A stretch of DNA of 64,000 bases from Ignavibacteriales bacterium (lineage in GTDB: Bacteria > Bacteroidota > Ignavibacteria > UBA10030 > UBA8401): positions 60,080 to 124,079 of the forward strand of contig JAPLFO010000148.1 of NCBI GenBank assembly GCA_026390635.1, given 5' to 3'. Both the position numbers and the translations under genes were made by a program. The notes below the pieces were generated by a model. It made no database searches, was not told the DNA's origin, and saw nothing but the letters and a program-made list of their open reading frames with translations. This document shows, piece after piece, positions 30,528 through 61,583 of this stretch; position 1 is the first letter of the stretch; every line of letters starts with the position of its first letter.

Positions 30528-30754
30528 CAGCTCACCTCCCTATTCATAGAGGGGGAGTGTAGTTACTCAGCATGTCAAGCAGGGGATGCAGTTTTTTACG
30601 CTGAGTAATTACGATGTATTTTAATAAGATACAATTTTAACTGTAGTGGATGCAAGGTATATATGGTGAAAATGCTGGAAATTCAGGCCATGATGAATTT
30701 CCGGTCACCGAGCGTCCATCCTTCGTCCCCAAGGGATCCCTAGTAACTCTCATT

Positions 30755-31516
30755 ATGCGCCGCACTTTTTTTTCACGCACTATTTTGCTACCTTTTTTAT
30801 TACCTATGGCAACGCACACAGCATCAAGAGCTCACGCCATCACACTGGCGCCTCCGCTTGAAGAACTTGGACTCTCGCGCGATACCATCTCACATGGACT
30901 GGGATATGGATCCACGCCTCCCCCGCCGGACGTCCTCGCTGAATTGGACGACATCCTTTCGGCATTGCCGGAACGATGCGAAGTTCGCTGCGGATATCGC
31001 ATTATCTCGGCGGAGGAGTTGTCTGTTTTTCCGGATCGTATTCACTGTGGTGCCACTGAGTTTCTCACCGGCCCCATTATCGCCAAGCGGGTGCGACAGG
31101 CGGAAACACTCGCCGTCTATGCGACCACAGCGGGTACGCCGCTGGATGTATGGTCGCATGAATTATTTCAGTCCGGCAACCACCTCAAAGGATATCTTGT
31201 CGATTCTACCGGATCGGAAATTGCGGAACTGACGGCGGACTGGCTGGAGAAGCGGCTGGCCGCCGATGTTGCTGTAAGGGATTGGAGAATCTCCAATCGC
31301 TATAGTCCGGGATACTGCGATTGGAATGTGAGTGAACAGCATAAGTTATTCAGCCTCTTGCCGGATAATTTCTGCGGCATCACTCTGACAGCGAGCGCAT
31401 TGATGCTCCCGAAAAAATCCACCAGCGGCATCATCGGATTGGGTAGAAAGGTGAAGCGGGAAGAATATCAATGCTCAATTTGCGATATGAAGGATTGTTT
31501 TCGGCGGAAAGAATGA
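30755..31516 (+). CDS. Standalone vitamin-B12-dependent methionine synthase activation-domain (Met_synt_B12) protein
   Basis: RYSPGYCDWNVSEQHKLFSLLPDNFCGITLTASALMLPKKSTSGIIGL matches the AdoMet-binding core of the MetH reactivation domain (GYpacPDhxeKxxLFxLLxxxxIGIxLTESxAMxPxASVSG). The start is uncertain: candidate ATGs at 30650, 30755 and 30806, none with a clear SD. Confidence 0.55.
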   Translation: MRRTFFSRTILLPFLLPMATHTASRAHAITLAPPLEELGLSRDTISHGLGYGSTPPPPDVLAELDDILSALPERCEVRCGYRIISAEELSVFPDRIHCGATEFLTGPIIAKRVRQAETLAVYATTAGTPLDVWSHELFQSGNHLKGYLVDSTGSEIAELTADWLEKRLAADVAVRDWRISNRYSPGYCDWNVSEQHKLFSLLPDNFCGITLTASALMLPKKSTSGIIGLGRKVKREEYQCSICDMKDCFRRKE

Positions 31517-31519
31517 AAT

Positions 31520-31683
31520 GAGACTTCTGAAAAACTCCTGGATGCCGGTCATTCTGAGCGCTTCGGCTCCGCTCAGCACAAGCTCCGCGAAGAATCCATT
31601 AGTTGTTTTCAGATCACAATGATGGATTCTTCGTCGCTGCGCGACTCAGAATGACAATCCGCGATGGTTTTTCAGACGTCTCG
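31520..31683 (+). repeat. MITE-like palindromic element, family A, copy 1 (about 165 bp, 17-bp terminal inverted repeats CGAGACKTCTGAAAAAC)
   Basis: About 98% identical to the reverse complement of 41424-41588. Internal hairpins include ctgagcgcttcggctccgctcag. It starts 3 nt after the stop codon of the preceding gene. Confidence 0.8.
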
Positions 31684-31832
31684 AAATGTGTTTGCCACAG
31701 AGGGCACAAGACAGAATGCAGCATTGACTATTTTCGTTTCTTTCGTCTCAAGAGTTTTATCGCACAGAATCAGAAAGAACCACGTTATACCGCTGGCGCC
31801 GGCAGACATCAACAACACTTAAGGAGCGTGGT

Positions 31833-33059
31833 ATGAAGAAAGAAGTTATTGCCATTGGAATGGCAGTTGTTCTCTGCGTCTGGTCGGTCCAAGCACAGTC
31901 AGACCGGAAAGACAAAGCGATCTACGTCGAACCAAAGAACGAATTCTTTGATCAGATCAAGAAGGATGCCGATGCGTTCTCCAAAAAGGAAGACGTAAAA
32001 AAGAAAGAGCTGCGCATCGACCTTTCCGGTATCGACTATCCGAAAGCCCCAAAAGACTTCATACAGGTCTGGCACAATGCTCCGATATCACAGGGCAGCT
32101 CCGGCATGTGCTGGTGCTTCTCAGCAACATCCTATTTTGAATCGGAGATCTACCGCCAGACAAAACGAAAAATCAAACTCTCCGAACTCTACACGGTGTA
32201 TTGGGAATATGTCGAGAAGGCAAAACGCTACGTTCAGGAGCGCGGGAATTCGGAATTCGGAGAAGGATCAGAATCCAACGCAGTACCGCGGATTTGGAAG
32301 CAGTACGGCATCGTACCGGCCGAAGCGTACACCGGCATGATTCCCGGACAAAAAGTCTATTACCACGACAAAATGTTCGAAGAACTCCGTTCCTATCTTG
32401 TTTCCGTAAAGAGCTCCAACGCGTGGGATGAACACGTCGTCGTTTCCACCGTGAAGTCGATTCTGGATCATTATCTCGGTGCGCCCCCTGCGACCATCAC
32501 CGTCAACGGCGTATCGACGACTCCGCAGGAGTACTTGAAAAACGTCGTACACTTGAATCTGGATGAGTATGTCGAAATCATGTCGACGATGAGTAGGCCC
32601 TGGTACACAAGAGCCGAATACGAAGTTCCCGACAACTGGTGGCATAATAAAGACTACTGCAACGTTCCCCTGTCAGATTTCATTTCAATCATCAAGAAAG
32701 CCATTCGTGCGGGACACACCATTTGTATCGGCGGCGATACGTCGGAGCCGGGCATGGATGGACATGCCGGTATCGCTATCGTGCCGACATTCGATATTCC
32801 TACATCGGCAATTGATGACAATGCCCGCGAGTTCAGATTCAACAATCGCACGTCGGGCGACGATCACGGCATTCATCTGGTCGGCTACCAGGAAAAAGGC
32901 GGCAAGGATTGGTACCTCATCAAGGATTCCGGGAGCGGGGCGCGCAACAACGATCATCCGGGCTACTATTTCTACAGCGAAGATTATGTGAAGCTGAAAA
33001 TGCTCGGATTCACAGTTCATCGTTCACTTATAGAAGATCTGCTGAAAAAATTTGAGTGA
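31833..33059 (+). CDS. Secreted C1 (papain) family peptidase, aminopeptidase C/bleomycin-hydrolase-like
   Basis: Signal peptide MKKEVIAIGMAVVLCVWSVQA; catalytic Cys motif QGSSGMCWCFS. Confidence 0.7.
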   Translation: MKKEVIAIGMAVVLCVWSVQAQSDRKDKAIYVEPKNEFFDQIKKDADAFSKKEDVKKKELRIDLSGIDYPKAPKDFIQVWHNAPISQGSSGMCWCFSATSYFESEIYRQTKRKIKLSELYTVYWEYVEKAKRYVQERGNSEFGEGSESNAVPRIWKQYGIVPAEAYTGMIPGQKVYYHDKMFEELRSYLVSVKSSNAWDEHVVVSTVKSILDHYLGAPPATITVNGVSTTPQEYLKNVVHLNLDEYVEIMSTMSRPWYTRAEYEVPDNWWHNKDYCNVPLSDFISIIKKAIRAGHTICIGGDTSEPGMDGHAGIAIVPTFDIPTSAIDDNAREFRFNNRTSGDDHGIHLVGYQEKGGKDWYLIKDSGSGARNNDHPGYYFYSEDYVKLKMLGFTVHRSLIEDLLKKFE

Positions 33060-39930: not shown

Positions 39931-40078
39931 TGTGAAAACTCGCGACGAAGTCATCGCGAGGAGCGAAGCGACGTGGCGATCTTTTTTTTGAATAGAAGCC
40001 AGAGTGTGCCGTTGTACGGCATCCTCTGGACTTCGGCAGAAAACGCCTCGCAATGACTAACTCCATAGTTTTCACACA
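39931..40078. repeat. MITE-like palindromic element, family B, copy 1
   Basis: Terminal inverted repeats gtgtgaaaact...agttttcacacac. The internal core tgtgccgttgtacggcatcc..tggacttcg.ca.a.aacg.ctcgcaatgac, plus gtcatcgcgagg, is shared with 61319-61455. Confidence 0.7.
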
Positions 40079-40131
40079 CTCTGAAAGCTTGGGAACGAGA
40101 AAGAATCTGCATCATCTGCGCAATCTGCCAT

Positions 40132-41379
40132 CTACACCCACCCCCGCAACTTGCATGCTTCCGCAACGCGCGCAACACCAACCACCATTGCGGCCAGTCG
40201 CGGATGGACGCGTTTCTGAACCATCGCCTGCTGTACGGAGTGGTACGCCTTCGTCAGTTTCTGATCGAGACGTTTGTGCACCAGATCTTCGTCCCAGAAG
40301 TACGAGTAACTGTCCTGCACCATTTCAAAATACGACACCGTGACGCCTCCCGCGCTTGCAAGAATATCGGGGATGACGTGCACTCCTTTGCGGAAAAGGA
40401 TCAGATCAGCCTCGGGCGTCGTGGGGCCATTGGCGAGCTCACAGACGATTTTCGCCTTGATTTTCTCGGCATTCAACTCCGAAATCGCATTTTCAAGCGC
40501 CGCCGGGTATAACACGTCCACGTCGAGCTCCAGAATTTCTTCGTGCGAAATCTGCTGCGCGCCCGGAAAACTGCGCACCGTTCCGGTTGTCAGTTTGTGT
40601 GTCACGAGATCTTTCGGATTGAATCCGTCCGGATTGTAAATGGCACCGCGCGAATCGCTGACGGCCACCAGTTTTCCCCCACCGAGAATTTCTTCATGCA
40701 GCAGCGCGGCGCGCTGTCCGGCGTTGCCGAATCCCTGAATGGCATACCGCCCGTGCGGATTCACATCGAGAATCTTACACGCCTCGCGCACGGTCGTCAC
40801 ACCGCCGCGGGCGGTCGCATCGCGCCGTCCTTCCGTACCGCCGATCTGCAACGGCTTGTCCGTAAACACACCGGGTTGATGCCGATGGACGATGGTTTCA
40901 TATTCGTCCATCATCCATGCCATTGTCTGTGGATTGGTATAGACGTCCGGCGCAGGAATGTCTTTTTCCGGGCCGATGTATTCTGCTACGGCGCGGATGT
41001 AGGCACGCGAGAGATTTTCCAGCTCGCGTTCAGAAAGTTTTTTGGGATCGCAGACAACGCCCCCCTTGCCGCCGCCAAGAGGAAGATCCACCACCGCAGT
41101 CTTCCACGTCATCCAGCTCGCAAGAGCGCGGATGATGTCCACGGTCTCGTCCGGATGAAAGCGGATACCGCCTTTGGCCGGGCCGCGCGCGAAATTGTAC
41201 TGGATCCGGTAGGCGTGAAAAATCTTCACCGATCCGTCGTCCATTTTTACCGGAAGCGTGCAGGAAAATTCCCGCTGCGGATAGCTCAGTAACTCGACCG
41301 TTGCGCGATCAAGGTTCAGCAGCTTTGCCGCTTCCGCAACCTGCTTTTGAGCGACATGAAAAGAATTATACGATTCCAT
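40132..41379 (-). CDS. Glu/Leu/Phe/Val dehydrogenase family, 415-aa glutamate dehydrogenase type
   Basis: ...[43 protein letters not shown]...; the NAD(P)-binding GFGNAG motif. Confidence 0.85.
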
Positions 41380-41423
41380 AGTCTTTGCCTTTTTGATCGC
41401 TGATTACTCAGATTTATGGATTG

Positions 41424-41588
41424 AGACGTCTGAAAAACCATCGCGGATTGTCATTCTGAGTCGCGCAGCGACGGAGAATCCATCGTTGTGATCTGAAAAC
41501 AACAAATGGATTCTTCGCGGAGCTTGTGCTGAGCGGAGCCGAAGCGCTCAGAATGACCGGCATCCAGGAGTTTTTCAGAAGTCTCGGA
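41424..41588 (-). repeat. MITE-like palindromic element, family A, copy 2 (inverted relative to copy 1)
   Basis: Its reverse complement matches 31520-31683 with 3-4 mismatches over about 165 bp. Confidence 0.8.
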
Positions 41589-41687
41589 TTACACAGCGTA
41601 TTGGTATTTATGTCTTCATCTTCGTAATCTGCGATCCATTTATTTGGCTGCAGTGCTGTTCCATTAAGTTGAATTATGAATTCTCTG

Positions 41688-41783
41688 CCCGCTTCGCCGA
41701 GCTCAGCGAGGCGAGTGCTCTCTTCTTTTTCTCTGTGCGTCACCCCGAGCGAGTGAAGCGAGTCGAGGGGCTCTGTGGCATAT
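41688..41783 (-). repeat. Intergenic repeat, family C, copy 1 (about 95 bp)
   Basis: Its reverse complement is about 95% identical to 46596-46688 (gccacagagcccctcgactcgcttc.ctcg.tcggggtgacgcacagagaaa...agagagcactcgcctcgctgagctcggcgaagcgg). Confidence 0.75.
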
Positions 41784-41805
41784 CTCTTACTTTCCATTTT
41801 ACGAT

Positions 41806-42018
41806 TCACTTGTTTTCTTGCGGTGGTAGTTGGTCGTCATGCGTGGACCGTCCCGGCGTTTCATCGCGTACATCCAGAATGATACGGTACCAGCAGTTCT
41901 TGCACATCAGCGCTTTGTCGACACTCAGCAGCACCTGTTCCCAGCGGCTCAGCTTATGCCCGCAGTGCGGACATGCTTCGTGCGATTTCTGCTTGTGAGG
42001 GGATTCACCGTTGCTCAC
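41806..42018 (-). CDS. Small zinc-ribbon protein (70 aa), speculative
   Basis: CPHCGHKLSRWEQVLLSVDKALMCKNC gives CxxC...CxxC. It overlaps the 3' end of the disrupted PPDK_N gene by 14 nt. Length and overlap make it weak. Confidence 0.3.
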   Translation of the reverse strand: MSNGESPHKQKSHEACPHCGHKLSRWEQVLLSVDKALMCKNCWYRIILDVRDETPGRSTHDDQLPPQENK

Positions 42019-45003
42019 GGGGCACCTCCGGTTTTAAAATAATGCCTTTGTTCTGGTGACCATTGATTTTAATGGTTACGGGCGATGTGAATCGAAGGTG
42101 TTTTGTAAATTCTTTCTTCTCCAGTGGAGTCTGCTGGAGCAGCCAGTCCCAATCCACCGATCCTTGATGGCTGTGCGTGTTGACACTGAAATAGCCGATC
42201 ATGAACGACGTGATGTTTTGGAAAAAATGCGACCCCTGCGAGGGTGTCACAGACATTTCCTTGAACGCTGTCTCGACAATTGCCCGCGCTCCCGAAATCT
42301 GATCCCATGCGACAGGAATACCAAGCCAGGGGTCCAATGTCCCCCAGCGCCCGACACCGATGAGCAGGTAGGGACGACTCTCTGCGATCATCTGCGAATT
42401 GAACGATGCAACCTCTGCGGCGACATCCAGGCTGCGCGACCGGTCGAAGAGATGATAATCGACGAAAACGATATCATAAATATCCTGTACCACTCCATTG
42501 CCAAGCACCTGAGCGCTTTGGCACAAGAGCTTCTCCGGGTCGTACGTTTCGACATTGAGTTCTTCCAGTTCGCGGTTGATGACAAGCGGACGCATCTGCA
42601 GAAGCCCAAACTCTCTCGGCTTTCCCGGCGGCACGGTCATGTTCACTGCAAATTCGATTTCGACCGGCGTTCCCATGCCCCACGTTCCCATGTCCAGCAG
42701 CAGTTCCAGGATCTGCGGCAGCGGGTAGAAGTTGTAGGACTTCGCCACGCCGGAGAAATCGGGATAAAAATGGCGTCGTTTTCCGGATCGTACGTGGAGC
42801 CGACATAGCGGAGCGGGCCGTCCCGCTCGGCGACGTCCAGTCCGTGTTTCATGACGAGCAGATCGTGTGTCTCCGTTCCAAAATCCGAGCTCGCATCCAG
42901 CTGGAGCGCATAAAAATCACGCTGTGTATTGTTGAGCGTCTCTTCGACAGAATGAAATTGAATAACATCCGTCGGATAGCGTGGACAGAACCGGACTGTC
43001 GCACCCCCATCCACCACCATCTTTCCGAGTCCGAGCGCTGCGGAGACGACACCGTCCGACGATGTCTGCGGCGGAAGCGGGTAGAAGTTGTAGGACTTCG
43101 CCACGCCGGAGAAATCGGGATAAAAGCGCTGCTCGTGTTTGTTGCCTACCATCTTCTGAATAATCACCGCCATTTTTTCTTCTTCCAGACGGTAGGACGT
43201 CACCTTGATGTAGTCCTTCGCCGCCTGGTAGAACGTCGACGCATAGACGCGCTTGATGCTGTTGAGCAGATCGTTGAGCCGGACAAGCGGATTGGCATGA
43301 TTGTTTGGAAGCATATACGTTTCATAGACACCCGCGAACGGATGATATTGCGAATCCTCCAGCAGACTGGATGAACGAACGGCCAGCGGTGTGTGAATAA
43401 TATCCAGGAATGCGGCAAGTTCGCCGAGAATATCTTCGGGAAATTTCACCGCCTCCAAAAAGCGCTTCGTAATTTCCTTGTTGTCGCGGCAGTTGAGTGC
43501 AAAGTTGCGAAGATTATTGTCATCCACGAATTGATCGAACACGTCTGTTCCGATGACCACGGCCGGAGGCACAGAAATCTGCACATCATCGAAACGGTCG
43601 CGGACATTATAGTCGTTGATAAGCGTGCTGACAAATCCGAGGCCGCGCGCCTTACCGCCCAGCGACCCGCCGCCGATGCGCGCGAAGCTTGTCTCCGGAT
43701 CGAACGATTCCTTGGAGAAATCGGCGATAATCCCGCGTTGGCGTATATTGCGGTAGTTGTGGAGCGAATTCACCAGATCGTTCCGCAGCGCCTCGACGGA
43801 CGGATAGTCCTCCACCCGGCGCGGACGCAATTGATGGGCCAGCCAGAATTCCGTACGGGCTTTCAGCCAGTTCGAGAAGTGATTCCGTTTTGCGTGATAT
43901 TTGACGCTCTCTTCCGGCACGATCTTCAGCTGTTCTTCGAGGGTTCGCAGGTCGGTCGCCCGGCCGACTTCCATACCGTTGTCCGTACGGAAGACAAAAT
44001 CGCCGAAACTAAAATAATGGCCCATGAACTGGCGCAGTTCGTTCAGCAGCAGCGGGGAATCTTTCAGCACGAACGCTGCACCGGTATCGTGAGCGAGCTG
44101 TTCGTTCGACGCCATATTCGAGAGCAGAAGAATCGGTACATCGGGCTGATCCTCTTTGATGGCGCGAGCGAGCGCGATGCCGGCCTGCGGATCGGCCGTT
44201 CCCATCCGCGGAAAATCGATATCGGAAATAACACCGAGCATAAATTCGCTGTACTGTTCGTAGCACGACCATGCCTCTTCATACGTCGAAGTCAGCAGAA
44301 TCTTCGGCCGGGCGCGCATCCGCAGAAACTTGTGCGTCAGGTTGATGCCTTCGGAAATCAGCCGCTGCGACTGTTTGAGCATTTCGGTATAGATAATCGG
44401 AAGAATGGAGGAATAGTATTTGACGCTGTCCTCCACGACGATAACCGTCTGCACGCCGACCATACGGGCGTCGTGCTCTACGTTCATGCGATCTTCCAGA
44501 TATTTGATGATGGCAATGATGATGCGGAAATCGCCCTGCCAGACGAACACTTTGTCGAATACCGACGCGGTGTTGCTCACCAGCAGGTATTGCAACTCCC
44601 GATTGTCGTGGGCCAGCAGCACAACCGGAATATTGATGCCCGACTCTTTTACCATGCGCGCAAACGTCACGGCATGCATGTCGTCGATGTGCAGCGTCGT
44701 GATGATGAGATCAAAGCGCCGCTCTTCCTTGGCCAGAGCGATGGCTTCGTGTCCGCTGGACACGCGGGTGAGTTCTGGAGAATGGCTTAGATTGAATCCC
44801 TGATACTCATTCCGGATTAATTCATACAGTCGGCCGTCTTCTTCAAAGAGGTAGAGATCATACAGACTGGAAACAAGAAGCACATCGCGGATGCGCAATC
44901 GCATCAGGTTCTGAAATCCTTGGAACCGATTGCCGTATCCGTGCTCGACCAGAAGGGTATCGAGCGCATTGACAACGTCGTCATTTTTCTTGCGCATGGG
45001 CAT
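42005..45003 (-). pseudogene. Disrupted paralog of the REC-REC-PPDK_N (PEP-utilising ATP-grasp) protein: ORFs 42643-45003 and 42005-42748 together span the full-length homolog
   Basis: The 786-aa ORF aligns to residues about 1-760 of the intact 1004-aa paralog. It then leaves frame at a second copy of a 49-bp exact repeat (gcgggtagaagttgtaggacttcgccacgccggagaaatcgggataaaa; copy A 43078-43126, copy B 42722-42770). The 247-aa ORF resumes the homology (AKSYNFYPLPQILELLLDMGTWGMGTPVEIEF...) in another frame. About 20 aa are missing relative to the paralog. Confidence 0.6.
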
Positions 45004-45140
45004 AGTACAAAAGACCTGACAGGTGTTTATAGCAAGCGTCCGACACCTCCTTGATTCGCAATGGCTGCTGATGCTATCAATATTTCAAAATAGAAGCCAG
45101 CGTTCTACGGAAGAGATGTCGGACACTTTGCGACACGCTA

Positions 45141-46547
<1,407 letters not shown>

Positions 46548-46595
46548 TCAGAGCAAATCTGACCGCTCTGATTAAATCATGAAAGAAAGACTTTG

Positions 46596-46688
46596 CCACA
46601 GAGCCCCTCGACTCGCTTCGCTCGTTCGGGGTGACGCACAGAGAAAGAGAAGAGAGCACTCGCCTCGCTGAGCTCGGCGAAGCGGACG
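46596..46688 (+). repeat. Intergenic repeat, family C, copy 2
   Basis: See 41688-41783. CACAGAG/CTCTGTG heptamers follow immediately at 46703-46742. Confidence 0.75.
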
Positions 46689-46795
46689 GAGAATGCAGAT
46701 CAGCCTCTGTGTTCTCGTCTTTTGTCCTCTGTGTTCTCCGTGACTATCTTTTTATGCTAAGCAATTACAATGCTGCACACTATATATCACTCTGC

Positions 46796-49700
46796 TTATT
46801 GTGGCTTGAGAATGACGCCTTTGTTCTTATGCCCGTTGATTTTCGCCGTCAGGGGCCTATCAAACCGGAGATGGCGAGTATATTCCAGCTCCTCGACGGC
46901 CGGCTGCTCCTGCAGCCATTCCCAGTCGATGAAGCCGAGGTTCAAAAAAGAATTCACCGTAAAATAGCCGACGCGGAACGACGTGATATTCTGGAAGAAG
47001 TGCGATCCCTGCGACGGCGTCACATTGAAATCCTTGAATCCTGATTCCACAATCACGCTGGCGCCTGAAATCTGATCCCACGACACCGGGATACCGAGCC
47101 AATGATCGAGACTTCCCCACCGGCCGACACCGATCAGAATGTACGGACGCTTCTCCGTCAGCAGTTTTGCATTCATTGCACTGACCTCGAGCGCCACCTC
47201 TTTCGAACGCAGCCGCTCGAACTTCTGAATATCGACACATACAATGTCGTAGAGATCCTTGATGACCCCGTTCCCGAGCACCTGGTCGCTCTGGCAAATG
47301 CTGCTGCCTTTCGATGCCTCGTCCACATCGAGCTCTTCCAGTTCATGACTCAACACCAGAGGACGCATCTGCAGCATGGCAAATTCGTTCGGTTTCTCCG
47401 GTGGCATGCCCATCGATGCGGCGAATTCGATCTCCACCGGAGTGCCCATTCCCCACGTTCCCATATCCAGCATCATTTGCAGAATTTCCGGCAGAGGAAA
47501 AATCTTGTGTTTGAGAATCGGCGAAAACGTCACGACGCGTTTCCCGGCACGGGAGATGCCGTCGTACACCGAGTCGTTCTCCGCCGAGTACGTGGAACCA
47601 ACATAGTACAGTGTTTGATCCTCTTCCGCCTTGCTCAGATCGTACTTGCGTACAAATTTATCGGGCGTATGGTGCCCCTCCTTCAAGATGCCTTCTGAAA
47701 GATCCAACGCATAGAAATCCTGTTGTGCATTTTTGATCGTATCGTTCGTGGAGAAAAACTGCATCAGATGGCGGGGATACTTTGGACAGAATCTGACAGT
47801 ATTCCCTCCATCGACCACCGTTTTTCCCAATCCAAGAGCCACAAGTACAATACCATCCTCGGATGATTGCGGAGGAACCGGATAGAAGTTATAGGACTTT
47901 GCCACTCCGGCAAAATCGGGATAGAATCGTCCGTGATGCTCGGCTCCGACCATCCGCTGGATAATCACCGCCATTTTTTCTTCTTCCAGGCGGTACGCCG
48001 TGGCCTTCATGTAGTCTTTTGCAGCTTTGAGAAACGTCGAGGCATACACCAGTCGGACGCTTTCCAGGAGTTCCTGCAGGCGCACCGCATGATCCGGATT
48101 GTTGTTCGGGATCATGAAGGTTTCGTAAACACCCGCAAAGGGCTGGAATTGCGAATCCTCCAGCAGGCTGGACGACCGGACCGCCAGAGGTTCGTGAATG
48201 ATCGCCAGAAATTCCGACAAGCGGCTTTTTATTTCCGCCGGGAATCTGTCCGCTTCCAAAAAGCGTTTCCGGATTTCATCGTCGCCGGCGGTGCTCAGCG
48301 AAAGATTCTCCAGCCGGTTTTCTTCAATGAAGCGATCGAAGATGTCCGTCGCAATGACAACCGCGGACGGGACAGACACTTCCACATCCGGAAAGCGGTT
48401 ACGGACACTGTAGGTGTTGATCAGCGTATTGATGAAGCCAAGTCCGCGGGCTTTTCCGCCCAGCGATCCGCCGCCGATGCGTGCAAAGCTGTTGCGCGGA
48501 TCGAATGTTTCTTTTGAAAACTCGGTGATGGTTCCGCGCTGGCGCACTTCACGGTATTTCTGCAGGGACGTAATCAGCTCGTTGCGCAGATCGGCAGTCG
48601 ACGCAAAATCGGTCACCTTGTGCGGCCGCAAACGGTGGGCCAGCCAGAATTCCGTACGGGCTTTGAGCCAGTTTGAGAAATGATTTCTCTCCGCATGATA
48701 CACGATGGACTCATCCGGCACGCGGCGGAGTTGATCTTCCAGGGCACCGAGATTACTCGCGCGGCCGACTTCCTGGCCATCCGCTGTTCTGAATGTGAAA
48801 TCGCCGAAGCCGAAGTGGCTTTTCATGAACTCGCGCAACTCATGGAGCAGGCGCGGCGAACCTTTCTGCAGGAATGAAGCGCCTATCTCCTTCGCAACAC
48901 CGGCAAACTCGGCGTTGCTGGATTGCAGCAGGATGGGAATATCTTCATGCTGTTTTTTCACATTGCGCGCGAAGGTGATTCCCGCTTCCGGATCTTTCAC
49001 GCCGTTCCGCTTGAAATTGACGTCCGAAATAATCCCGAGAATAAATTCCTGATACTTCTCATAGTACGACCATGCTTCCTCGTACGTCGTGCAGAGTAGG
49101 ATTTTCGGACGGGCTTTCATCCGCAGCATCTTGTGCGTGATGTTGATACCTTCCTGAATCAGGCGCTGCGATTGATTGAGAATTTCAGTATAGATGAGGG
49201 GAAGATAGGAGGAATAGAACTTCACATCGTCTTCAACCAGGATGATCGACTGGACGCCGACGGTCATGGTATCGTTTTCGACGTTCAGCCGGTCTTCCAC
49301 GCATTTGATGATGCCGATCAGGAGGCGGAAGTCTCCCTGCCAGATAAAGATCCTGTCAAAAATGGTTGTGTCATAGTTCGTGACAATGTCTTTCCGCTCG
49401 CGGTTGTCGTATGCAAGCAGCACGATCGGAATCTGCAATCCCACCTGCCGCACCATCTGTGCGAACTTGATGACGTGCATATCTTCGATATGCAACGTGG
49501 TAATGATGAGATCAAAAGTATTCTCGACGGTGGCCAGCTCGATCGCTTCAGCGCCGCTGGTGGCATGGGTGATTTCCGGAGGGTGGCTCAGATTCAGCAC
49601 CTGCGATTCCTGGCGGATCAGTTCATAGAGCCGTCCGTCTTCCTCAAACAGGTAGTCGTCGTAGAGACTGGAGACAAGAAGCACGTCGCGGATTTTGTGC

Positions 49701-49810
49701 CGCATCAATTTCTGGAATGTCTTGATGCGGCTTCCGTAAAGGTCTTCTATCGTAAGATGATCTATTTTACTCATGATCGGCCGGACGATACCGTTCAGAC
49801 TGCTCGGCAA
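46796..49810 (-). CDS. Large protein with two N-terminal receiver-like (REC/pseudo-receiver) domains and a C-terminal PEP-utilising-enzyme nucleotide-binding ATP-grasp domain (PPDK_N)
   Basis: 1004 aa. N-terminus ...IRDVLLVSSLYDDYLFEEDG... and ...SIILVEDDVKFYSSYLPLIYTEI... (CheY-like folds). C-terminal half ...IGGGSLGGKARGLGF...AVRSSSLLEDSQFQPFAGVYETFMIPN...GTPVEIEFA...MLQMRPLV matches the pyruvate phosphate dikinase / PEP synthase PEP-pyruvate-binding domain. No phosphohistidine or PEP-utilizer C-domain is evident. Confidence 0.7.
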   Translation of the reverse strand: MPSSLNGIVRPIMSKIDHLTIEDLYGSRIKTFQKLMRHKIRDVLLVSSLYDDYLFEEDGRLYELIRQESQVLNLSHPPEITHATSGAEAIELATVENTFDLIITTLHIEDMHVIKFAQMVRQVGLQIPIVLLAYDNRERKDIVTNYDTTIFDRIFIWQGDFRLLIGIIKCVEDRLNVENDTMTVGVQSIILVEDDVKFYSSYLPLIYTEILNQSQRLIQEGINITHKMLRMKARPKILLCTTYEEAWSYYEKYQEFILGIISDVNFKRNGVKDPEAGITFARNVKKQHEDIPILLQSSNAEFAGVAKEIGASFLQKGSPRLLHELREFMKSHFGFGDFTFRTADGQEVGRASNLGALEDQLRRVPDESIVYHAERNHFSNWLKARTEFWLAHRLRPHKVTDFASTADLRNELITSLQKYREVRQRGTITEFSKETFDPRNSFARIGGGSLGGKARGLGFINTLINTYSVRNRFPDVEVSVPSAVVIATDIFDRFIEENRLENLSLSTAGDDEIRKRFLEADRFPAEIKSRLSEFLAIIHEPLAVRSSSLLEDSQFQPFAGVYETFMIPNNNPDHAVRLQELLESVRLVYASTFLKAAKDYMKATAYRLEEEKMAVIIQRMVGAEHHGRFYPDFAGVAKSYNFYPVPPQSSEDGIVLVALGLGKTVVDGGNTVRFCPKYPRHLMQFFSTNDTIKNAQQDFYALDLSEGILKEGHHTPDKFVRKYDLSKAEEDQTLYYVGSTYSAENDSVYDGISRAGKRVVTFSPILKHKIFPLPEILQMMLDMGTWGMGTPVEIEFAASMGMPPEKPNEFAMLQMRPLVLSHELEELDVDEASKGSSICQSDQVLGNGVIKDLYDIVCVDIQKFERLRSKEVALEVSAMNAKLLTEKRPYILIGVGRWGSLDHWLGIPVSWDQISGASVIVESGFKDFNVTPSQGSHFFQNITSFRVGYFTVNSFLNLGFIDWEWLQEQPAVEELEYTRHLRFDRPLTAKINGHKNKGVILKPQ

Positions 49811-49884
49811 TGCCGTCTGGAATCATAGAATGTGCGGGGATGAGTTATCCCGCTTGTCCCGCACATTCTATAACATTCCTTGCG

Positions 49885-51225
49885 CTACACCAACCCCTGA
49901 TCCATCATCGCATCTGCAACCTTCAGGAATCCGCCGATATTCGCACCGTTCACATAGTTGCCCGGAGTTCCGTACTTTTCCGCGTTTTCAAGACAGGTCT
50001 TATGAATATTTATCATGATCTGATGCAGCCGCTGATCGACTTCTTCTTTCGGCCAGGGAAGCCGCATGCTGTTCTGGCTCATTTCCAATCCGGAGGTGGC
50101 AACACCGCCGGCGTTCGATGCCTTTCCCGGCGAGTAGAGCACTCCGGCTTCATGGAGTACTTTCACGCCGGAAAGTGTCGTCGGCATGTTTGCGCCTTCA
50201 CACACACAGTAGCAGCCGTTTTTCAATAGTTCTTTCGCATCGCTATCGTCCAACTCATTCTGCGTCGCACACGGCAGCGCGACGTCCACTTTCACTCCCC
50301 ACGGTCGTTTGCCGGGATGGAACTCAACCTTGAAGTGATCTGCATAATCCTTCACGCTATCCCGTGCGCTGGCACGCATTTGCAGCATGTAGTCGATCTT
50401 TTCCCCTTTGATGCCTTCTTTGTCAAACACAAAACCGTCGGGACCTGACAGCGTCACCACTTTTGCACCGAGTTGTGTCGCCTTCTGCACGGCGCCCCAT
50501 GCAACATTGCCGAATCCGGATACGGCAACAGCCTTGTCGTCGAACGTTTGGCCGCGGGTCTTCAACATCTCCTGTGCAAAATAGACGACACCGAATCCTG
50601 TCGCTTCCGGACGAATCAGCGAGCCGCCCCAATTCAATCCTTTTCCGGTGAGGACGCCGGAGAACTCTTTGGTCAATCGCTTATATTGTCCAAACAGATA
50701 ACCGATTTCGCGGCCGCCGACCCCGATGTCGCCGGCGGGGACGTCGATGTCGGGTCCGACATGACGGTACAATTCCGTCATAAAGCTCTGGCAGAACCGC
50801 ATTACTTCATGATCGCTCTTTCCTTTGGGATCGAAATCGGAGCCGCCCTTACCGCCGCCCATCGGCAGCGACGTGAGGCTGTTTTTAAAGACTTGTTCGA
50901 ACGCAAGAAATTTTAGTATACCCAGCGTGACTGAAGGATGGAAGCGAAGTCCGCCCTTGTACGGTCCGATGGCACTGTTCATTTGAATACGGAAGCCGCG
51001 ATTGATCTGGAACTCTCCCTGATCATCCATCCACGGTACACGAAACATGATGACGCGTTCCGGCTCGACCATGCGTTCGAGTATTTTTGCCGAGCGATAT
51101 TCAGGATGGCGTGCAATTACCAATTCCAGGGATCCGACAACCTCTTCGACTGCTTGATGAAATTCGGGTTCGTTTGAATTTTTTGCTTTGACTTGTGCTA
51201 CTACATTTTGAATATATTCAGACAT
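49885..51225 (-). CDS. gdhA: NADP-specific glutamate dehydrogenase (GdhA type), second copy
   Basis: 446 aa, about 70% identical to the 45141-46502 product, with the same GGGKGG and nucleotide-binding motifs. Confidence 0.9.
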   Translation of the reverse strand: MSEYIQNVVAQVKAKNSNEPEFHQAVEEVVGSLELVIARHPEYRSAKILERMVEPERVIMFRVPWMDDQGEFQINRGFRIQMNSAIGPYKGGLRFHPSVTLGILKFLAFEQVFKNSLTSLPMGGGKGGSDFDPKGKSDHEVMRFCQSFMTELYRHVGPDIDVPAGDIGVGGREIGYLFGQYKRLTKEFSGVLTGKGLNWGGSLIRPEATGFGVVYFAQEMLKTRGQTFDDKAVAVSGFGNVAWGAVQKATQLGAKVVTLSGPDGFVFDKEGIKGEKIDYMLQMRASARDSVKDYADHFKVEFHPGKRPWGVKVDVALPCATQNELDDSDAKELLKNGCYCVCEGANMPTTLSGVKVLHEAGVLYSPGKASNAGGVATSGLEMSQNSMRLPWPKEEVDQRLHQIMINIHKTCLENAEKYGTPGNYVNGANIGGFLKVADAMMDQGLV

Positions 51226-51640
51226 AACAACCTCACCATAAACTACACTTTGTGATTTAGTGTGATAATATAGAACGTTTTTACTGCCGATGCAACTTCA
51301 GCTATTTTCCCGATATTGCGCATTTTTAGCCACAAGGTTGACTTTCCCTTACTGTTTGTAGAATTCGGAGTGCCCCACCTTTGGAAATCGAAAGATTTCT
51401 GCGACTTTCTAATTAGAATTTACGGCATATTATTTGCTTCAAACTAGTGGGGTCAACAATAGAATCGAGGGTAGTGGTATGATGTGGTTGGCAGGCTTTG
51501 CAGTGTATGCGTGTGTGGTATTTCTCTTCCTCCGGTTTTTCCGATTTGTTTCGCAGGTGGATGAGGATGTTGAACGGATGCGGGAAAGTACTTTGCAGTA
51601 AAAACGCCGGAAATGCCATATTGGTGATGTTGGCGCAGTT

Positions 51641-61318: not shown

Positions 61319-61455
61319 GTCATTGCGAGGGAGCCCCGCCATAGGCGGGGTAAACTCCGCGACGAAGCAATCTTGTCCCCAAAAGCAGGAAAGAAGGATT
61401 GTGCCGTTGTACGGCATCCATTGGACTTCGCCAAAGAACGGCTCGCAATGACGCT
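61319..61455. repeat. MITE-like palindromic element, family B, copy 2
   Basis: Terminal inverted repeats gtcattgcgagg...gctcgcaatgac. The core tgtgccgttgtacggcatccattggacttcgccaaagaacgg is shared with 39931-40078. Confidence 0.7.
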
Positions 61456-61583
61456 TGCCCAGGATTTTTGAGATGGCTTCCAGTCACTTCGTCTCTCCGC
61501 TTCATATTCACAGAAACATTCCAATCCATCCCTGAGCAAAAAACCGTATATTGTGAAAATTGAAATTTTCAAAGGAGCTTTCT

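Follow-up and report, generated by a model that had tools for sequence, protein, structure and literature searches.

Several non-autonomous DNA transposons (MITEs) have been assigned to insertion-sequence parents: MITEPsy1 (Pseudomonas syringae) to ISPsy2, BrickBuilt and MITEPgRS (Porphyromonas gingivalis) to ISPg1/ISPg4, and ATR (Neisseria) to ISNme1; these IS5-derived MITEs are mobilised in trans, with experimental proof for MITEPsy1. IS5 subgroups duplicate 2-4, 8 or 9 bp of the target, as catalogued in ISfinder, and ISPg1/IS1126 probably makes 5-bp duplications. TIMEs, which are Tn3-derived, have terminal inverted repeats (TIRs) of about 38 bp starting GGGG. REPINs carry a GTAG tag and have a cognate RAYT gene, with neither IS-type TIRs nor a target duplication, and Bertels and Rainey are said to have described in 2011 how they are mobilised by RAYTs; HUH transposition leaves no target duplication.

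MITEPsy1 has the end GGAAGGTCTGAAAAAGCC and makes a 4-nt duplication at CTAG/YTAA; it is thought to derive from ISPsy2, and its transposition was shown experimentally (PMC3189936). ISPg1, ISPg4, and ISPg9 together with their MITEs, and also ISNme1, have the ends GAGACC(A/T)TTGCA(AAA) (PMC4596501), and the 1143-bp IS5 element ISEcret7 has the end GGAMCCTCTGAAAAA and a 4-bp duplication (PMC6007542). CGTC-tagged REPs, reported in Chlorobi and Bacteroidetes among other phyla, have no dedicated transposase, and all CGTC-1 dimers of H. neapolitanus lie within the palindrome GGGaaGCTT-GAAAaACC...GGTaTTTCgAAGC-gCCC, which was read as their target (Di Nocera 2013, PMC3733652).

Here, a 64-kb window (the whole stretch of DNA analysed) from the metagenome-assembled genome (MAG) of an uncultured Ignavibacteriales bacterium was found to contain a 163-bp TIR-bounded unit inserted whole at two unrelated intergenic sites, with a 5-bp target duplication at each. 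We interpret this unit, with high confidence, as a transposon of the TIR/target-site duplication (TSD) type mobilised in trans, and very probably as a MITE, an ordinary kind of element. Exact matches to NCBI proteins MCX6137945-MCX6137954 place the window on a 223-kb contig of this MAG.

Extent, ends, and coding capacity of the element

The repeat search of the window recovered two inverted copies of the 163-nt element that were 98% complementary (Table 1). When copy 1 and the reverse-complemented copy 2 were aligned together with their flanks, 160/163 positions were identical, and the three mismatches were all central (31601, 31620, and 31631); similarity between the copies ended abruptly at both ends, and the flanks were unrelated. 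The copies had the ends GAGAC(T/G)TCTGAAAAAC ... GTTTTTCAGA(C/A)GTCTC, forming a 16-nt TIR with one mismatch (15/16 complementary), and the TIR pattern occurred four times in the window, solely at the element ends, against 0.22 expected. There was no ORF of more than 36 aa essentially inside the element, and the longer listed ORFs extended into the flanks. At 163 nt, the element falls within the size range of MITEs, about 50-800 bp.

The first-pass annotation had described a 165-bp repeat with 17-bp TIRs, about 98% identity in opposite orientation, nested hairpins in the interior, copy 1 starting 3 nt past a stop codon, and copy 2 in the upstream region of the glutamate dehydrogenase gene gdh. 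The repeat, its orientation and identity, the hairpins (folding, repeated arm blocks), and both positions relative to genes (the stop codon being TGA at 31514-31516) were recovered as described; the dimensions were revised, since the repeat measured 163 nt, copy 2 lay at 41423-41585 rather than 41424-41588, and the TIRs, present as claimed, were 16 nt long with one mismatch. The C taken as the 17th TIR base belongs to the flank, because it is the complement of the G with which both target duplications open, and the left ends lack it.

Table 1. Positions in the window of the two element copies, their parts, and the adjoining genes
Feature	Position	Strand	Remarks
Met_synt_B12-like ORF	30650-31516	+	Weak Met_synt_B12 match
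Copy 1 left TSD, GAAAT	31515-31519		Overlaps last two bases of TGA stop
Copy 1, 163 nt	31520-31682	+	Between stop of Met_synt_B12-like ORF and C1 peptidase gene
Copy 1 left TIR, GAGACTTCTGAAAAAC	31520-31535	+	TIR pattern search
Left tagged hairpin module, (G)GTCATTCTGAG...CGAAGAATCCA	31547-31602	+	Extra nested hairpin CTGAGCGCTTCGGCTCCGCTCAG; folding, motif searches
Right tagged hairpin module, minus strand TGTCATTCTGAGTCGCGCAGCGACGAAGAATCCA	31619-31656	-	Head-to-head with left module; folding, motif searches
Copy 1 right TIR, GAGACGTCTGAAAAAC on minus strand	31667-31682	-	TIR pattern search
Copy 1 right TSD, GAAAT	31683-31687		Sequence inspection, pairwise alignment
C1 peptidase gene	31833-33059	+	
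Glutamate dehydrogenase gene (gdh)	40132-41379	-	ATG at 41379; Pfam ELFV_dehydrog
Copy 2 TSD, gdh side, GGATT	41418-41422		AATCC on gdh strand; sequence, empty site
Copy 2, 163 nt	41423-41585	-	Inverted relative to copy 1; 43 nt upstream of gdh start codon
Copy 2 TSD, distal side, GGATT	41586-41590		Sequence, empty site

Target-site duplications and empty site

Direct repeats of 5 bp flanked both copies and differed between the sites, being GAAAT at copy 1 and GGATT at copy 2; these repeats had gone unrecorded in the first-pass annotation. The sequence comparison was extended to a related, syntenic Ignavibacteriales lineage, in which the 90% cluster representative of gdh was located on long contigs from five samples (L208-L212; about 75-80% nucleotide identity). 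In 5/5 of these contigs, the gdh leader AATCCATAAATCTGAGTAATCAGCGATCA was kept up to the insertion point and continued as ...GATTACGCAGATGAGATATAAATAACCGCCTTCTGCGT-AATCC-ATAAATCTG..., with a single AATCC and no element. Across the junction, the contigs read ...CTGCGT AATCC ATAAATCTGAGTAATCAGCG... and the window read ...CTGTGT AATCC (163 nt) AATCC ATAAATCTGAGTAATCAGCG..., and the window minus 163 nt and one AATCC was collinear with these relatives in the alignment. The gdh upstream region of this lineage is a clean empty site for copy 2, lacking the TIRs as well as the core; copy 2 and its empty site show that the composite of ends plus head-to-head dimer inserts as one unit with duplication.

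At locus 1, two near-identical strain contigs (L203 and L205) joined 31516 to 31804 and had no element (31517-31803 absent). This allele is a polymorphism rather than a precise empty site, because a further 121 nt is also missing. The missing 121 nt includes the motif GCCACAGAG, also seen in family B (see below), and merely 31 nt separates the Met_synt_B12-like ORF from the peptidase gene in both contigs (1369-1370 in L203). In the related lineage, the intergenic region of locus 1 was too diverged for alignment.

Logan short-read contigs with the exact flanking proteins (at least seven runs) broke off within the element at each of the four junctions, 27-31 nt from its edge. Samples with the filled alleles belonged to the ERR153022xx, SRR20698xxx, and SRR250465xx series. 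A k-mer assembler behaves in this way at a repeat, and the contig breaks indicate that the element is repeated in the source metagenomes; two copies were counted directly, within the 64-kb window. The 98% identity of the copies suggests recent copying; the first-pass annotation had proposed recent mobility or copying.

Tagged hairpin modules in the interior

The whole element was predicted to fold as one long, imperfect hairpin (about -74 kcal/mol on either strand; z = -5.8), and GTCATTCTGAG and CGAAGAATCCAT were found on both arms of its interior. RNAalifold with 20 diverse family members gave three helices, namely TIR-TIR, GTCATTCTGAG-CTCAGAATGAC, and GAAGAATCT-AGATTCTTC, in which nearly all pairs were invariant (covariation term -0.66); with invariant pairs and no compensatory change, the arms are conserved as sequence.

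Canonical modules from the relatives and from metagenome loci followed the pattern NGTCA-X4-GAGCGnAGCGA-Y4-TC, in which X and Y were perfectly complementary in 94/97 non-redundant instances, with five X4 stem variants (TTCT, TCCT, CCCT, CTCT, and TTCC) and the tag TGTC in 90/97 and CGTC in 5/97. The module stem was composed of 5 covarying base pairs around the conserved 11-nt GAGCGAAGCGA, itself with a 2-bp inner stem. The window copies had GGTC/TGTC, then ATTCT...AGAAT, then CCA, and on folding their stems were longer and interrupted.

A metagenome scan with the right-arm 33-mer (Bacteroidota/Ignavibacteria subtype) returned at least 120 stretches. The module was far more widespread outside TIR pairs than within them: among the metagenome module matches listed, 1/129 lay inside a GAGAC TIR pair, and the others were head-to-head units or arrays with no TIRs, on unidentified contigs whose composition ranged from A+T-rich to clearly G+C-rich. 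The module was near base-for-base constant across Ignavibacteria, Bacteroidota, Planctomycetota, CPR bacteria, and metagenome contigs of high and low GC. Since TIR-free modules are found in many phyla as well, the MITE looks like a module framed by transposon ends. It is conceivable, though on balance doubtful, that the TIR-framed elements are the mobile form of a pan-bacterial TGTC/CGTC-tagged module (GTCA-N4-GAGCGAAGCGA-N4'-TC, partner GATTCTTCG...CTCAGAATGAC). If this were true, CGTC-type REPs would hitch-hike between IS5-like ends on a DDE transposase making 5-bp duplications, and simple descent would not account for the constancy of the module across phyla, which would instead reflect a partner that recognises its sequence (a host protein, or a transposase at subterminal sites).

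Two further variants without such TIRs were seen elsewhere in the window: (i) family B, a 104-nt inverted repeat of 94% identity (CGTCACCCCGAG...; 41677-41780 and 46594-46697), which lay upstream of gdh1 and beside a second gdh paralogue and contained CGTCACCCCGAGCGAGTGAAGCGAGTCGAGGGGC of the same tagged-hairpin type, with no GAGAC-type TIRs evident; and (ii) a GTCATTGCGAG unit directly 3' of gdh and at 61.4 kb, where a 56-nt direct repeat of 88% identity (39940-40130 and 61335-61525) read AGTCATTGCGAGGCG... on the minus strand, copy a continuing to ...GTCGCTTCGCTCCTCGCGATGAC. The unit directly 3' of gdh is a head-to-head dimer of this module type with no TIRs. No tRNA was found in the window.

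Related elements in other genomes

The family scan used the query TCTGAAAAAC-N9-14-GTCATTCTGAG against one genome per species, so that the left-end blocks were imposed by the query. At least 108 stretches of other genomes matched the TIR plus core pattern, incomplete elements included. The matches listed came from one Ignavibacteriae MAG, Bacteroidota (including three Chitinophagaceae MAGs), many Planctomycetota/Brocadiales MAGs, Omnitrophica, one Paceibacterota (CPR) MAG whose dozens of copies lie at contig ends, Deltaproteobacteria, Acidobacteriota, Chloroflexota, Nitrospinae, Clostridia, and Spirochaetota; some of these phylum labels may stem from binning. Many copies per genome were present in relatives, e.g., the Planctomycetota MAG JACQVQ01; the Chitinophagaceae MAG CAYHZL01 was likewise rich in copies.

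Complete GAGAC-type elements were 98-330 nt long (mode 131). Their consensus was GAGaccTCTGAAAAAC - 10-13 nt - GTCATTCTGAG - (gGagcgaagcgacc) - GAAGAATCtc - loop in the left part and GATTCTTCGcttC-gCTCAGAATGACA - 11-20 nt - TTTT(T/G)CAGAggTCTC after the loop; the near-invariant right-arm blocks and the right TIR are a result in their own right, because the search query did not impose them. The flanks were a perfect 5-bp direct repeat in 24/53 full elements, against 0.05 expected by chance, and perfect flanking repeats of other lengths were found in 1-5 elements at each of k=2-4 and k=6 and in none at k=7-8 (n=53). The duplicated pentamers were A/T-rich with no fixed core. All but one of the elements (52/53) were intergenic, often 3-40 nt from an ORF end.

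The sequence comparison was also applied to orthologous regions of Planctomycetota MAGs (L047 and L105, L049 and L063; 66-96% protein identity), which held an element at the same site, and these same-site elements differed by internal deletions or insertions. Such sharing points to some of the insertions being old and passed on vertically. Other small palindromes, including GTAG-tagged GTAGGGGCACGGCATGCCGTGCCCCTAC, GTCCGCCTGAGGCGGA, and GTCACCCTGAGCGAAGCGAAGGGTC, were nested in several family members (L039, L062, L061, L085, L105, and L006), and REP-like units appear to land preferentially in the interior of the MITE. Paceibacterota MAG10 (JASGCE01; L004-L102) carried dozens of variant copies of about 216-257 nt with GGAAGGTCTGAAAAAC ends and 4-bp flanking repeats; as these copies are often located at contig ends, the element fragments that assembly.

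The exact terminal 26-mer of the window element had no match in the JGI metagenomes, the read-through peptide had no relatives in the protein collection searched, and neither the core and TIR strings nor typical spurious peptides had a relevant occurrence in the literature searched. The family is widespread and, as far as that literature goes, apparently without a name. It is common in environmental MAGs, it fragments assemblies, and gene calling there may list its read-through translations among small hypothetical proteins; a named model would improve annotation.

Candidate transposases

The first-pass annotation had proposed looking for a transposase with matching TIRs, and none was found in the window, in 0.7 Mb of related loci, or in viral contigs. 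Within the window, neither the TIR pattern nor Pfam matches of 40 of the 44 largest ORFs gave an autonomous element or any transposase family. Within the related loci (L003-L110; 0.7 Mb), no TIR pair 0.7-3 kb apart enclosed a transposase, phmmer with Escherichia coli IS5 InsH against all ORFs gave no IS5-like ORF, and an all-against-all search for multicopy proteins found orthologues alone. When viral contigs were scanned for the TIR alone, 87 single matches and no transposase-bearing TIR pair were obtained. The one candidate from the related loci, a 1967-bp pair of L024, was rejected as two separate MITEs flanking ordinary genes, and the one pair 1338 bp apart on viral contig L146 enclosed HD-domain genes. 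Among known systems, ISPsy2 was not found on the large plasmid of P. syringae 1448A, where MITEPsy1 alone was present, and tblastn of InsH against plasmids gave matches dominated by IS5/ISKpn26.

The TIRs and the duplication of fixed length point to a DDE enzyme. Acting in trans, this transposase would recognise the GAGACNTCTGAAAAAC ends and cut A/T-rich targets with a 5-bp stagger; it would most likely be of the IS5 family, from elements ending GAGACC.../GGA.CCTCTGAAAAA, and would be encoded elsewhere in the genome or have been lost. The window TIR was identical to that of ISEcret7 (GGAMCCTCTGAAAAA) at 13/15 positions, and the right TIR of the Planctomycetota copies (GAGACCTCTGCAAAAG) was identical to that of ISNme1 (GAGACCTTTGCAAAA) at 14/15. 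The present family has a 5-bp duplication, outside the usual IS5 subgroup lengths, and no YTAR target. Since this duplication is atypical for IS5, it is the resemblance of the TIRs that points to the IS5 family, and we regard the assignment as evenly balanced.

Genes around the copies

The 40 ORFs scanned with Pfam were mostly housekeeping or T9SS-secreted proteins, and five had no match. Judged from the junction sequences, copy 2 would move the native upstream DNA 168 bp away from the conserved gdh leader, and a 168-bp insertion could change gdh regulation relative to relatives without the element. Copy 1 would place a predicted hairpin of -74 kcal/mol between two co-oriented genes whose spacing in the element-less allele is 31 nt. 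The first-pass suggestion that such copies can donate promoters, terminators, or RNA structure is speculative. The element explains two of the repeats in the window, the short-read assembly breaks at both sites, and the separation of gdh from its native upstream DNA.

The gdh region had features of its own. A pair composed of glutamate dehydrogenase and PPDK_N/response-regulator genes occurred three times in tandem (window 40100-51300; 66-73% nucleotide identity), an arrangement kept in the related lineage (L208 400-11250). One PPDK_N/response-regulator gene (42005-45003, minus strand) was broken into two ORFs that overlap (786 aa and 247 aa) and held a 55-nt direct repeat of 98% identity (42715-42769 and 43071-43125), and its L208 orthologue was a single 1007-aa ORF; the split may reflect misassembly, a frameshift, or duplication within the gene. 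A 70-aa ORF with two CxxC pairs (41806-42018, minus strand), located between gdh and the PPDK-like gene, was kept as a called 69-aa gene in L208-L212 and had no Pfam match on record.

Alternative explanations

The core of the element is a head-to-head pair of tagged stem-loops, as would be expected of a REP doublet copied, like a REPIN, by a RAYT-type single-strand (HUH) transposase, in which case the outer inverted repeats would be a palindromic target or part of the hairpin rather than transposase-binding ends. Such an origin would fit the scarcity of TIRs around the module in the metagenome matches listed (1/129), the short stem covarying around a constant loop (94/97), and the H. neapolitanus CGTC REP dimers inside a similar palindrome read as target (PMC3733652). 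However, the TIR-bounded unit has the 5-bp duplication in the window and in 24/53 relatives, neither TIRs nor core are present at the empty site, the tag is TGTC/GGTC and not the GTAG cleaved by RAYTs, and no transposase family matched among the window ORFs scanned with Pfam. The empty site indicates that the 5-bp repeats are true duplications; in that case a REPIN-like origin is refuted for the unit with its TIRs, and we hold such an origin to be improbable.

The stable fold on both strands, the position near gene ends (often within 3-40 nt), and internal arms that are invariant across phyla could also mark a hairpin kept by selection as a functional RNA or regulatory element, whether as terminator, attenuator, or mRNA stabiliser, whose copies came from a duplicated regulatory module. 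This is a still less probable explanation: Rfam gave no match at gathering thresholds in the window and, around copy 1, chance-level matches alone at E up to 10; a scan that covers sigma-70-like, not Bacteroidota-type, promoters and intrinsic terminators predicted none in or beside either copy; orientation relative to co-directional neighbours was unbiased in the family (14 same and 12 opposite), the helices are kept as sequence and not by compensatory change, the target duplications and the empty site reveal a mobile unit that inserted, and the gdh leader is shared with the related lineage, where the element is absent. A regulatory role is compatible with a MITE, because MITEs can be co-opted. 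That the two inverted palindromes arose by segmental duplication, gene conversion, or misassembly might be entertained for a MAG with two copies alone in the window, and is the least probable account, at a level close to negligible. Segmental duplication or artefact is refuted by the copy alignment, the independent junctions, and the empty site: identity stops exactly at the TIRs and the flanks share nothing, all four junctions recur in independent assemblies of at least seven sequencing runs, the copies have different 5-bp duplications, and the family occurs in many other genomes. Because the flanks are unrelated, no flanking sequence was duplicated with the element. The MITE reading is supported by the target duplications, the unrelated flanks, the empty site, the contig breaks, and the family in other genomes, as the first-pass annotation had anticipated in calling the element MITE-like.

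Comparison with known elements

Like MITEPsy1, BrickBuilt, MITEPgRS, and ATR, the element is small (100-700 bp in this set), non-coding, and intergenic, and the TIRs are alike: GGAAGGTCTGAAAAAGCC in MITEPsy1, GAGACC(T/A)TTGCA(AAA) in the ISPg1/ISNme1 group, and GAGAC(C/T/G)TCTG(A/C)AAAAC in the present family. Unlike MITEPsy1, which duplicates 4 bp at CTAG/YTAA, the present family duplicates 5 bp with no YTAR/CTAG target, and the interiors are unrelated, MITEPsy1 from NC_007274 having no GTCATTCTGAG core; the Paceibacterota variant with GGAAGG ends has 4-bp flanking repeats. The element shares with TIMEs a small non-coding structure and the 5-bp target duplication, but its TIRs are 16 bp long and start GAGAC. 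It also resembles REPINs in being an intergenic, multicopy doublet of inverted short palindromes (the REPIN hairpin being about 100 nt), but it differs from them in its TGTC tag, its TIRs, and its 5-bp duplication, with no transposase among the scanned window ORFs.

Like CGTC-tagged REPs, the modules have a (C/T)GTC tag, a stem starting AT, and a short tail (AGAAT-CCA in the window), and they form head-to-head dimers; moreover, the H. neapolitanus palindrome GGGaaGCTTGAAAaACC and the present TIR GAGACCTCTGAAAAACC were identical at 12/17 positions. CGTC REPs have an 8-9 bp stem and a 4-5 nt loop, whereas the present module has a 5-bp stem, an interrupted inner stem, and the longer loop GAGCGAAGCGA, and the window unit, unlike the CGTC REPs reported by Di Nocera 2013, is TIR-bounded with a target duplication. 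The element links two classes usually kept apart, the IS5-type TIR/TSD MITEs and the tagged REP-like palindromes, and it is of some specialist interest for combining IS5-like ends that have a 5-bp duplication with a very widespread REP-like module as cargo.
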